Source: a virus (lineage: Duplodnaviria; Heunggongvirae; Uroviricota; Caudoviricetes). Taken from it: a DNA stretch of 4,914 nucleotides. The position numbers and the translations under genes were made by a program. Shown piece by piece: positions 796-4,830 of the stretch (the first letter of the stretch is position 1; each line of letters opens with the position of its first letter). A model generated the notes under the pieces. That model searched no databases and was not told the DNA's origin. It worked only from the letters and a program-made list of their open reading frames with translations. The stretch lies in the IMG/VR virus record IMGVR_UViG_2734482547_000011; one strand, given 5' to 3'.

Positions 796-830
796 GGAGT
801 TTACTCACATCTGACAAAATCAATATAAAC

Positions 831-850
831 AGCCCCTCCGGAGAGGGGCT
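831..850 (-). terminator. Perfect 20-bp palindrome AGCCCCTCCGGAGAGGGGCT (8-bp GC-rich stem, 4-nt loop); possible terminator or insulating hairpin
   Basis: Arms are exact reverse complements. On the minus strand the hairpin is followed by GTTTATATTGATTTTG (T-rich); on the plus strand there is no T-run. It sits between convergent transcription units. Confidence 0.35.
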
Positions 851-1242
851 GGAGAGTGGCGCTATGTGCCATTGCATGGTGCCGGGTGCCTCCCGGTGAA
901 TTCAGTACCAGCACCTGAATCCGCGATTATCCCATATACCTACTCGCTGATTGCCCCTCCGCACAGGGGGATTCACCATGCCAGTTTCTTTTAACAAACT
1001 CCCCGCAAACCAGACAACAGTCAACCGCCTGAATTGTGAAGTATTTAAAAATTTCTCCCGCTAACTGATACCCGGCTAACAGTCTGGCGTTTTCTTTTTC
1101 AGCAACGGGAAAGCAACAACCACCACACCCGCCACCAGCACACCGTCAGCCAGCACTGACATTATCCGGCTGCTGCAATGCCATTCACAAAAACAGTAAG
1201 CAATCACTTTTTACCGTAACAGGTGATAATCCAGATATGTAT

Positions 1243-1998: not shown

Positions 1999-2022
1999 AA
2001 AAAACCCGCTCGGCGGCGGGTT
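1997..2022 (-). terminator. Rho-independent terminator downstream of the Q-like gene (tR'-like position)
   Basis: Minus strand reads AACCCGC-CGCCGA-GCGGGTT followed by TTTTTTATTG: a GC-rich 5-7-bp stem plus a six-T run, about 40 nt after the Q-like stop codon. Confidence 0.6.
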
Positions 2023-2061: not shown

Positions 2062-2916
2062 TTATGACGAATTTACCACAGATTCCGGAAAAATCAACCT
2101 AGTTACCTTTTTTAACTGCCGCTCAGCCCATGCTTCTTCAATATCAAACCGAGTCACCAGCGCATCATAGAATTTCTTAACTGTTTTTTCCCATGACGCG
2201 CGTGTTATCTGGTTTGTCACCTCGCATATAGCATTAAATGCCTCCGTTGATGGTAGTCTTTCATAGCCACGACCACCACAACGCTGGCAGTCTCTGATAA
2301 CAGGCATACCACGTTTTACCGACTCTTCACGATGAATGGCGACACCACGCCCACGGCAATCCTTACAGGCGGTGGAAACCTCACCCTTTCCGCCACACTC
2401 CGGACAGGCAACTTTTACCACCTCCCTGACTTTTTTCCATTCTTCCCAGTAAGACGGATACACACCTTTCGTACACTTTGCCCATACCGGCGGCTTACCA
2501 TCCGGATACTGGACCTTGTTTGTAAAAACTACGCTTTCAATAAATTTTTCCCCATAGCAACAAGGGCACTGCTTTTTACTCGCTGCGCTGCGGGCATAAT
2601 CCTCAAAAGCGTACGAAGCCATAATGCGCATCACTACCGGTTTTATTTCTGCCGGAAGTTTTCTCAACGCCGCCACACGATCGCACCGACTGAGTGCATA
2701 ATCTGCCAGTAATTCTGTTGCCCGCGCCCTGTCATTCATACTGATGCCCATTTTCCCCAGGAACGCAGAAAACCCCATCTCAGCCCGATTCTGTGTCATG
2801 CCCTGCGCGGCCATCACATCAGTGATACTCAGCGCATCTTTTGACGTTGAGGCCGATGCATCGGTCAGGCAAGGGGATTTTGGGGAGTAGTATTTCGGTA
2901 AATCTTCCAGTTTCAT
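2062..2916 (-). CDS. Phage late-gene antitermination protein Q-like, 284 aa, with three CxxC-G-x-G zinc-knuckle motifs
   Basis: Canonical ATG with a 4-nt ATGA overlap onto the rusA stop. Position (after rusA, before terminator and tRNA cluster) matches lambdoid Q. Motifs CPECGGKG, CKDCRGRG and CQRCGGRG indicate a zinc-binding domain. Functional call is from gene order and recalled family features, not a search. Confidence 0.6.
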   Translation of the reverse strand: MKLEDLPKYYSPKSPCLTDASASTSKDALSITDVMAAQGMTQNRAEMGFSAFLGKMGISMNDRARATELLADYALSRCDRVAALRKLPAEIKPVVMRIMASYAFEDYARSAASKKQCPCCYGEKFIESVVFTNKVQYPDGKPPVWAKCTKGVYPSYWEEWKKVREVVKVACPECGGKGEVSTACKDCRGRGVAIHREESVKRGMPVIRDCQRCGGRGYERLPSTEAFNAICEVTNQITRASWEKTVKKFYDALVTRFDIEEAWAERQLKKVTRLIFPESVVNSS

Positions 2917-3287
2917 TTTTTGACCTGCTCTTCATGCATTATGGGGTAAATCTTCACCCCCAGACGTCCACCAGATACTGGCTGACCACGAACGATATTG
3001 ATTTCATCAAACTGCTCATCGTCCATTAACACTCCCGCATGTGTCAGTGCATCCAGTGGTGCTTTCAGGATATTGTCCAGGTCACGACGGCGCTTATCCG
3101 GTGGCTCTGCAATAATCTTTATCGCCAGTCTTCCGGACAGGCTTAATTTCAGTCGCTGCTGACGGACAATAAGCGCCACATCCCGGCGATAACGCTCACC
3201 GGCTTTTGATACAAAATATGTGTTGTCACGACGTCGCCAGTAAGTATTCACCGTCGGCGGATAAGGTAAAATAAACTCATGGCGCAT
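2913..3287 (-). CDS. rusA: RusA-family Holliday junction resolvase (crossover junction endodeoxyribonuclease)
   Basis: 124 aa. Blocks LPYPPTVNTYWRRR, VSKAGERYRRDVALIV, PDKRRRDLDNILKAPLDALTHAGVLMDDEQF and SGGRLGVKI align with recalled E. coli RusA (LPWPPSNNRYYR..., [40 protein letters not shown]). Start ATG overlaps the upstream stop (TGATG). Confidence 0.88.
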   Translation of the reverse strand: MRHEFILPYPPTVNTYWRRRDNTYFVSKAGERYRRDVALIVRQQRLKLSLSGRLAIKIIAEPPDKRRRDLDNILKAPLDALTHAGVLMDDEQFDEINIVRGQPVSGGRLGVKIYPIMHEEQVKK

Positions 3288-3544: not shown

Positions 3545-3664
3545 AAGAAACGCTCCATCTTACTGCTGTCAGTTCGTTTATTACTGTATCTGCGCGGATT
3601 GCCGGGCTTCATGGGAGTGGAAAGCACCCGTGCACTTTCCTGGTCCACAGGCAGAAAATGTCCG

Positions 3665-3820
3665 TAGACTGGCCCCCTGAATCTCCAGACAACCAGTATC
3701 ACTTAAATAAGTGATAGTCTTAATACTAGTTTTTAGACTAGTCATTGGAGTACAGATGATTGATGTCTTAGGGCCGGAGAAACGCAGACGGCGTACCACA
3801 CAGGAAAAGATCGCAATTGT
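3665..3820 (+). mobile_element. IS2 left-end fragment (156 bp: terminal inverted repeat plus the first ~21 codons of insC), truncated
   Basis: Identical over 156 bp to the IS2 end at 4374-4529 (TAGACTGGCCCCCTGAATCTCCAGACAACC...), then diverges at 3821. Confidence 0.85.
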
Positions 3821-4143
<323 letters not shown>

Positions 4144-4373
4144 NNNNNNNNNNNNNNNNNNNNNNNNNNNNNNNNNNNNNNNNNNNNNNNNNNNNNNNNN
4201 NNNNNNNNNNNNNNNNNNNNNNNNNNNNNNNNNNNNNNNNNNNNNNNNNNNNNNNNNNNNNNNNNNNNNNNNNNNNNNNNNNNNNNNNNNNNNNNNNNNN
4301 NNNNNNNNNNNNNNNNNNNNNNNNNNNNNNNNNNNNNNNNNNNNNNNNNNNNNNNNNNNNNNNNNNNNNNNNN
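4144..4373. other. Assembly gap (230 N)
   Basis: Uninterrupted run of N; the flanking sequences are both IS-derived repeats. Confidence 0.99.
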
Positions 4374-4464
4374 TAGACTGGCCCCCTGAATCTCCAGACA
4401 ACCAGTATCACTTAAATAAGTGATAGTCTTAATACTAGTTTTTAGACTAGTCATTGGAGTACAG

Positions 4465-4830
4465 ATGATTGATGTCTTAGGGCCGGAGAAACGCAGACGG
4501 CGTACCACACAGGAAAAGATCGCAATTGTTCAGCAGAGCTTTGAACCGGGGATGACGGTCTCCCTCGTTGCCCGGCAACATGGTGTAGCAGCCAGCCAGT
4601 TATTTCTCTGGCGTAAGCAATACCAGGAAGGAAGTCTTACTGCTGTCGCCGCCGGAGAACAGGTTGTTCCTGCCTCTGAACTTGCTGCCGCCATGAAGCA
4701 GATTAAAGAACTCCAGCGCCTGCTCGGCAAGAAAACGATGGAAAATGAACTCCTCAAAGAAGCCGTTGAATATGGACGGGCAAAAAAGTGGATAGCGCAC
4801 GCGCCCTTATTGCCCGGGGATGGGGAGTAA
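4465..4830 (+). CDS. insC: IS2 transposase OrfA (InsC), 121 aa
   Basis: Translation [56 protein letters not shown]... matches recalled IS2 InsC. True start is the ATG at 4465, not the upstream ATG at 4420 used in the ORF track. Confidence 0.9.
4782..4788 (+). promoter_or_regulatory. Programmed -1 ribosomal frameshift site A_AAA_AAG (IS2 OrfA to OrfAB)
   Basis: The heptamer A AAA AAG is in the insC zero frame, and the -1 frame continues open as [42 protein letters not shown] (InsD N-terminus). Confidence 0.8.

Follow-up and report, generated by a model that had tools for sequence, protein, structure and literature searches.

The DNA considered here, referred to as the window, is a stretch of 4,914 nt from a Caudoviricetes record (IMG/VR IMGVR_UViG_2734482547_000011), and all coordinates refer to the whole of that stretch. 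Two convergent genes, iraM on the plus strand (460-795; a homologue of the anti-adapter IraM, NCBIfam 162 bits against a cut-off of 121) and a DUF3927 gene on the minus strand (1076-1207, identified by family search), flank an intergenic region rich in hairpins, and our subject is the STnc100-family small RNA (sRNA) that this region very probably encodes. An earlier note on the same DNA had drawn attention to three hairpins, a ribosome-binding site (RBS) and a short open reading frame (ORF), and all of these features are present where it placed them. The first hairpin (831-850) has a perfect 8-bp stem, AGCCCCTC-CGGA-GAGGGGCT, or 9 bp if counted over 830-851; it had been called a perfect palindrome, which holds for the stem but not for its 4-nt loop. 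The second (882-896) reads CCGGG-TGCCT-CCCGG and the third (954-969) CCCCT-CCGCAC-AGGGG, and the 9-mer GCCCCTCCG is common to the first and third (832-840 and 953-961). A Shine-Dalgarno (SD)-like motif, AGGGGGA (965-971), is followed 6 nt downstream by ATG 978, which opens a 28-codon ORF on the plus strand (978-1064; translation MPVSFNKLPANQTTVNRLNCEVFKNFSR). Two further elements were absent from that description: a fourth hairpin at 898-922, and a long-range 8-bp helix between GCATGGTG (874-881) and CACCATGC (974-981), complementary at 8 of 8 positions, which encloses hairpins two to four and takes in ATG 978.

A scan against Rfam had been proposed as one check on these hairpins. Compared with all Rfam families, the window gave a match to RF02076 (STnc100, Gammaproteobacterial sRNA) on the minus strand at 1010-821, scoring 132.4 bits (gathering score 47; E 5.4e-30) and covering model positions 1-206 of 206 without truncation. 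Hairpins three, two and one are the STnc100 helices P2, P5 and the terminator, read from the opposite strand. The earlier note had left the choice between an RBS-sequestering hairpin and a structured small RNA; the small RNA stands, but it lies on the minus strand, and the RBS and ORF reading finds no support. The fold of the single sequence agrees with the helices of the Rfam model, and the multi-helix core of STnc100 can be followed in the window copy through a closing helix around CCCCC..GGGGG, the pairing GGAUUCAG..CUGAAUUC and CCGGG..CCCGG. The fold energy of the predicted mature RNA is -69.5 kcal/mol (z -3.08), and for the interval 821-1010 the z-scores against shuffles are -2.3 (minus strand) and -3.2 (plus strand). 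With hits accepted at E up to 1, neither AsxR (RF02703) nor AgvB (RF02702) was matched on the plus or the minus strand of the window, while the Sakai Sp5 positive control gave 88 bits. We consider it very probable that the minus strand at 821-1010 is an STnc100-family sRNA gene with the structure, context, promoter and mechanism set out below. STnc100 is an already catalogued Hfq-associated sRNA of lambda-like prophages, and the window copy is an ordinary member rather than a new one; the only new points are a start site and a possible control by CRP, both of them predictions.

The predicted mature sRNA (822-981, minus strand) is about 158-160 nt long, starting at the G of GCAUGGUGAAUC at 981 and ending in a U-tract. 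Its structured domain is closed by P1, in which the 5' arm GCAUGGUG (974-981), holding the ATG at 978-980 on its other strand, pairs along all eight bases with the 3' arm CACCAUGC (874-881). Within this closing helix lie P2 (954-969), a CCCCU-GUGCGG-AGGGG hairpin found by both Rfam and folding, whose 5' arm reads AGGGGGA on the plus strand; variable region 1 (923-953), where other members carry unrelated sequence (columns ~61-112 of alignment A1, described below); P4 (898-922), GGAUUCAG-(9 nt)-CUGAAUUC, seen in the fold and by covariation; and P5 (882-896), CCGGG-AGGCA-CCCGG, seen by Rfam and folding. Variable region 2, AAUGGCACAUAGCGCCACUCUCC (852-873), separates P1 from the terminator; it differs among members and is a candidate seed. 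The rho-independent terminator (821-851), located by a terminator scan, has the stem CAGCCCCUC-UCCG-GAGGGGCUG (851-830) followed by UUUAUAUUG. This stem is of 9 bp, 7 of them G-C pairs, with TTTATATTGA after it, and a terminator-like site was reported on the minus strand only. On the strand of iraM, a gene that itself sits in an AT-rich segment, the same hairpin (830-851) is followed by GGAGAGTGG, without a T-run.

Pattern scans of public collections yielded 124 loci, of which an exact 25-mer in genome contigs accounted for only 4, the diversity coming from viral contigs. With the E. coli 042 locus these gave 85 distinct homologues, from 100% to ~68% identical, which were aligned by MAFFT (alignment A1); the sequences are related, and conserved positions among them are non-independent observations. 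Folding with covariation, another of the proposed checks, bears out the pairing. Over the five helices (34 pairs), 95.3% of alignment cells hold standard pairs, compared with 39-51% in controls slid by 1-3 columns, and in the core helices the figure is 97.9%, with compensatory changes in P1, P4 and P5. Fifteen pairs have changes on both sides, a count equalled in 0 of 500 shuffles. P1 (helix 1) is 99% paired across the 85 sequences, with three GC-to-AU double changes and 24 G.U or U.G cells. The clearest covariation is that of P4 (helix 3; 98% paired), where 4 of 8 pairs show compensatory changes (at one pair, AU in 42 and GC in 35) and another is G.U in 74 of 82 sequences. Compensatory changes affect all 8 pairs of the terminator (helix 5) across alternative terminators. 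P2 and most of P5 (helix 4; 98.6% paired) are nearly invariant and hence give no covariation evidence either way. RNAalifold, applied to A1, independently recovers P1, P2, P4, P5 and the terminator.

The same alignment settles the strand. In a minus-strand reading, 158 helix cells are G.U and 7 are A.C; on the plus strand the 158 would become A.C mismatches, and the paired fraction is 90.0% rather than 95.3%. Only on the minus strand does a T-run come after the terminator hairpin, and the Rfam match is to that strand too, so the RNA is encoded on the minus strand.

Across the family the scaffold is nearly invariant, with GCAUGGUGAAUC followed by P2, then P4, then UCACCGGGAGGCACCCGGCACCAUGC (P5 with the 3' arm of P1), and two stretches are swapped between members, one between P2 and P4 (923-953 in the window) and one between P1 and the terminator (852-873). 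In A1 the family is a mosaic, in which 5' promoter types, variable regions 1 and 2 and terminator types occur in many combinations, as expected from recombination between prophages. Tandem STnc100 arrays stand directly after prophage tRNAs, with four copies in locus L009 (2265-3380, minus strand) and two in L012 (3121-3798, plus strand), and further tandem arrays are found in L020, L021, L027, L039, L068, L077 and L079. Such copies lie ~470 bp apart and have a common scaffold with differing variable regions. In L070 (7958-8219) an STnc100 match of 90 bits stops a single base short of a tRNA gene (8146-8219), and unrelated sequence takes the place of the usual upstream TTTGTTAAAA. Two other pairings were considered and rejected. 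An outer helix, GGGGAGU/ACUCUCC, appears in the 190-nt fold; the same 5' type is combined in other members with many 3' variable regions that hold no partner for it, and the 5' segment probably lies upstream of the transcription start. An alternative pairing of P2 with the terminator through their shared CGGAGGGGC was set aside in view of members in which P2 is unchanged while the terminator has been swapped for unrelated hairpins.

Comparative alignment of the upstream regions suggests a promoter belonging to the sRNA itself. It would comprise an extended -10 element, TG-T-TAAAAG (988-996, minus strand; -15 to -7), a weak -35 element, TTGTCT (1012-1017, minus strand; -36 to -31), of which the TTG is conserved, and a CRP-like box, TTTTA-AATACT-TCACA (1035-1050, minus strand), centred at -61.5 from the predicted start. 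Divergent members share, at a fixed spacing upstream of GCATGG, the arrangement TG-n-TAAAAN, a weak -35 (TTGTCT or TTGCCT, 18 bp upstream of the -10) and a TGTnA-N6-TCACA box. Most upstream types retain the TA at -12/-11, even several that have diverged strongly, with exceptions such as L063. Of 31 upstream types, 24 have a CRP-like site that agrees at 8 or more of 10 core positions, while ~4% of shuffled sequences have one anywhere, and 23 of the 24 sites, in sequences that are related, are centred between -60.5 and -62.5 from the predicted start. The box in the window agrees with TGTGA-N6-TCACA at 8 of the 10 core positions, and those of homologues at up to 9. Class I CRP-dependent promoters have their box centred at such a distance, near -61.5. 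Many loci have an intrinsic terminator directly upstream of the conserved box, so that there the sRNA needs a promoter of its own. A subgroup with unrelated upstream sequence (EDL933, PasD) keeps the spacing, with TTGATT or TTGACT, 17 or 18 bp and TAAAAA, but has no box. In the relative PasD2 the published 5' end, as estimated from RNA-seq (741157), lands exactly on the G of GCATGGTGAATC; since this is the same G to which the promoter geometry points, transcription in the window probably starts at about 981.

Whether CRP acts at this promoter is a more tentative matter. It is possible, going by the sequence elements just described, that most STnc100-type sRNAs, the window copy among them, are under a class I promoter dependent on CRP and cyclic AMP (box at -61.5, weak -35, extended -10), although we would not put it higher than that. 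No report of CRP control of STnc100-type sRNAs was found in the literature searched. The motif AATTCAG (1029-1035), in the region of the box, is complementary to the P4 arm CTGAATT (899-905); this is probably coincidental, as P4 covaries and the upstream motif does not. Two other promoters were considered and rejected. A sigma-54 promoter was hinted at by Salmonella ChIP-exo data (PMC10794520), but inspection by eye showed no TGGCAC-N5-TTGC motif. TTGACT at -43 to -38 could be taken as a -35, for which the "-10" at a 17-bp spacing would be GAGTTT or GCATTT, both poor.

Several relatives of the window RNA have been studied in pathogenic E. coli. In the Sakai strain, convergent genes for Hfq-bound sRNAs occupy the "moron" slot 3' of pR' in eight prophages, with EcOnc27 lying 3' of stx2B (PMC4104026). 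EcOnc27 is the same RNA as sRNA103 of EDL933; it has been detected by Hfq-CRAC and Northern blotting (PMC7873438, PMC4104026, PMC12711010), and its overexpression raises fimZ and espA transcripts (PMC7873438, PMC12711010). EDL933 has 11 STnc100 copies, all with transcriptome reads, of which STnc100_4 is Northern-positive (PMC5331693); the published STnc100_4 coordinate did not map onto the RefSeq EDL933 record. PasD1 and PasD2 of enteropathogenic E. coli (EPEC) have been detected by Northern blotting, with a reported Hfq-dependent stability and many RIL-seq partners (PMC8550237), and a common ancestor of PasD and STnc100 has been proposed (bioRxiv 10.64898/2026.05.13.724894). STnc100 has also been reported in the outer-membrane vesicles of Shiga toxin-producing E. 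coli (PMC12370729), and family variants near stx2 are statistically linked to the risk of haemolytic uraemic syndrome (PMC12711010).

Set beside the EcOnc27/sRNA103 copy, the window copy has the same helices, terminator type, relative strand and conserved upstream box, and occupies the same slot between Q, pR', the tRNAs and a moron gene on one side and the lysis cassette on the other. In Sakai Sp5 the STnc100 gene (208 bits) is on the late strand, 75 nt past stx2B, and AsxR is encoded tail-to-tail with it from the opposite strand. The window copy is ~72% identical to it over the core and differs in both variable regions; its upstream gene is DUF3927 rather than stx2B, and its convergent partner is the iraM protein gene rather than AsxR. 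One STnc100 copy identical to that of Sakai Sp5, an Stx2 phage, was found in an 888-bp contig assigned to Xanthomonas pisi (L005; NZ_JPLE01000080.1), most likely a contaminant of that assembly from E. coli or a phage. PasD1 and PasD2 of EPEC E2348/69 share with the window RNA the 5' motif GCAUGGUGAAUC, the layout of P1, P2 and P4 and the terminator, and likewise follow a DUF3927 gene in a lambdoid late region. They differ in that PasD2 scores below the STnc100 gathering score, with a degenerate P5, and has a near-consensus -35 without a CRP-like box, and in that the PasD seed UGUGAG is missing from the window copy, which has AAUGGCACAUAGCGCCACUCUCC there.

Other small RNAs of the late region are more distant. 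AsxR and AgvB (RF02703, RF02702; PMC4104026) share the moron-slot neighbourhood, and in Sakai Sp5 AsxR lies opposite STnc100, on the strand from which the earlier note had read the hairpins; they are, however, anti-sRNAs of 51-60 nt with unrelated sequence, and in the window the convergent space is held by iraM. IpeX of the DLP12 prophage (E. coli K-12), which acts on core-genome targets, resembles the window RNA as a prophage sRNA located in the Q-to-lysis interval beside the moron gene nmpC; homology was rejected, there being no STnc100 match at the gathering score in MG1655 571000-579000, which covers the whole quuD-nmpC-essD region. StxS and lambda 6S RNA are also small prophage RNAs of the late region, being short pR'-tR' transcripts that arise at pR' right after Q, and StxS is Hfq-associated. 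The equivalent position in the window (~2003-2097) is instead ~1 kb upstream of the STnc100 gene. There, a terminator-like hairpin with a T-run (2003-2022, minus strand) lies just past Q, and by eye a weak TTGATT-16-TAAATT (2070-2097) overlaps the end of Q; on sequence grounds this is a candidate pR'/tR' pair that might yield a short leader RNA of the StxS or lambda 6S kind. A weak Rfam match to Trp_leader nearby (25.7 bits, below the gathering score) looks spurious.

We propose that a weak sigma-70 promoter of the sRNA's own (TTGTCT, 18 bp, TG-n-TAAAAG), probably assisted by the CRP-like box at -61.5, would start transcription at about 981, and that transcription would stop at the 851-830 hairpin (3' end ~822-829), the product being about 160 nt long. 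Its conserved 5' domain of several helices would serve as a stable scaffold. With Hfq, the RNA would act in trans by base pairing to mRNAs or to other sRNAs, for which it would use a variable single-stranded stretch. The likeliest such stretch is 873-852, just 5' of the terminator, which by analogy is the best candidate seed, since the published PasD seed UGUGAG sits just 5' of its terminator. In a lysogen the terminator may, in addition, bar transcription not modified by Q from the lysis genes.

The last of these functions could be the only one. If the hairpins were merely terminators or insulators, separating iraM from DUF3927 and moron transcription from the lysis genes, no separate RNA function would be needed, and indeed the 830-851 hairpin is a terminator between convergent genes and the element lies upstream of the lysis cassette in every context seen. 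A terminator has no need, however, of a 110-nt domain with four conserved, covarying helices and near-invariant loops, nor of promoter-like elements of its own, and this domain occurs directly after another terminator; homologues, moreover, are seen as discrete transcripts, and association with Hfq is on record for EcOnc27 and PasD (PMC5331693, PMC8550237, PMC7873438), so we regard a terminator-only role as very improbable. There is likewise only a slim chance that the RNA exists but does not work mainly by base pairing, whether as a cis element in the processing or stability of the Q-antiterminated late transcript or as an RNA that binds or sponges CsrA or Hfq. The gene is co-oriented with late transcription, tandem arrays hold two to four copies, the stems and loops are conserved by nucleotide (P2 and P5 almost invariant), which suggests sequence-specific recognition, and in CsrA ternary complexes no RNA is more abundant than PasD2 (bioRxiv 10.64898/2026.08.12.744399). 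Against this, a seed has been defined for PasD, whose RNA partners are many and Hfq-dependent (PMC8550237), nothing points to a role in processing, and the several GGA motifs of the window copy, 6 in 190 nt, are only modestly above a rough hand estimate of ~3-4 from base composition.

The other reading offered by the earlier note, in which hairpin 954-969 hides the SD AGGGGGA in a plus-strand transcript and so controls translation of the 28-codon ORF, has the merit that the SD-like motif, the 6-nt spacing, the ATG and the open frame are all there, that the plus strand folds stably (z -3.2) and that read-through from iraM could provide the RNA. The ORF, however, does not behave as a gene. From the equivalent ATG in 84 contexts the frame runs for 2, 5, 10, 13, 16, 17, 20, 21, 24, 27, 28, 33, 34 or >50 codons, and the 28-codon frame is intact in only 13 of 61 unique versions. 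Among 31 gap-free versions there is no excess of variation at third codon positions (variable sites 21/20/19 at positions 1/2/3), and the codon changes relative to the window comprise 61 synonymous, 215 non-synonymous and 7 stops. Neither Pfam nor NCBIfam matches the product. The ATG and AGGGGGA owe their conservation to being arms of P1 and P2, and the remainder of the ORF is the reverse complement of the sRNA promoter region, so that the whole is a chance ORF. In Sakai-type copies the frame ends at codon 10 and the DNA motif within the "ORF" is nevertheless kept, which places the conservation at the nucleotide level. With the G.U cells that become mismatches on the plus strand, these results leave RBS sequestration already largely refuted and, in our estimate, scarcely credible. 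A 42-aa ORF on the plus strand (866-994) has no Pfam or NCBIfam match either. RefSeq/PGAP gives partial "hypothetical protein" pseudogenes antisense to STnc100 or PasD genes in E. coli 042, EDL933 and E2348/69 (window 866-991, plus strand; L001 4167-4292; L128 4229-4372; L129 1198-1439), which are probably annotation artefacts seeded by spurious ORFs; the sRNA is not among the features returned for these three RefSeq records. A 37-aa ORF with a GTG start on the minus strand (801-914), inside the sRNA, was considered because some EDL933 STnc100 copies have ribosome footprints (PMC5331693); it was rejected, its start codon being missing in many homologues and its length varying from 14 to >80 residues, and it has no Pfam or NCBIfam match.

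The base-pairing sRNA with a promoter of its own thus remains the preferred reading, and the following points weigh against one or another part of it. The U-tract UUUAUAUUG is short, interrupted and shorter than in most homologues, so that, compared with copies that end in UUUUUU, this one may terminate less efficiently and bind Hfq less well. The promoter of the window reaches only 8 of 12 positions of the consensus and was not reported by the promoter scan; the PasD2 5' end is an estimate from RNA-seq coverage rather than a mapping of primary transcripts; and common ancestry of the promoter module could account for part of the conservation of the CRP-like box. In Sakai, the Hfq-crosslink cluster of EcOnc27 begins ~40 nt upstream of GCAUGG, which would allow for longer transcripts or for processing from an upstream mRNA (here that of DUF3927). 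Expression and Hfq association of the window copy are argued by analogy with its published homologues. The mechanism by which sRNA103 affects fimZ and espA is unclear (PMC7873438), and no target of an STnc100 member has been shown to be direct.

The surroundings of the gene are those of a lambdoid prophage late region. On the minus strand, RusA (2913-3287, by family search) is followed by a 284-aa Q antiterminator (2062-2916; PF03589), a tRNA with anticodon CAU (1884-1959) and tRNA-Arg(UCU) (1707-1783), both found by ARAGORN, a 117-aa ORF (1243-1596), DUF3927 and the sRNA, after which come the convergent iraM and DUF1737, the latter identified by family search beyond iraM. The sRNA gene thus stands in the moron slot, running in the same direction as Q, the tRNAs and DUF3927 and towards iraM. 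The 117-aa ORF, taken from the ORF list and unannotated in E. coli 042, matches nothing in Pfam or NCBIfam; it may be a moron gene, or it may be non-coding. The tRNA pair, CAU and Arg(UCU), forms a cluster typical of Stx-type lambdoid phages; the CAU tRNA is called Met by ARAGORN, as against tRNA-Ile in RefSeq for the E. coli 042 equivalent (ileZ2 in Sakai). In E. coli 042 the 551 bp around the element are 100% identical, and the same arrangement continues into holin, lysozyme and terminase genes. Similar sequence is present in 2859 of 5426 complete E. coli genomes, at up to 12 places per genome. Elsewhere in the window, ~165 bp that include the end of an IS66-family insertion sequence (IS) occur twice (3661-3829 and 4374-4540); the first of these breaks off at ~3830, and beyond it come the 3' part of an IS21-type IstB-like ORF (3879-4143, minus strand) and then a run of 230 N (4144-4373), so the interval 3661-4540 is a nested or rearranged IS insertion beside the prophage, partly masked.

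As a discovery the window copy carries little weight, given that STnc100 is a curated Rfam family, found in over half of the complete E. coli genomes and already treated in work on enterohaemorrhagic E. coli and EPEC. The analysis does correct the strand and remove a tempting reading of the region as a small ORF under a riboregulator. For a family whose regulation and targets are largely obscure, comparative analysis of the promoters offers a predicted start site and a possible input from CRP. If that input is real, lambdoid prophages would couple an sRNA scaffold with a swappable seed to the catabolite state of the host, and the PasD branch would have exchanged a CRP-type promoter for a constitutive one.

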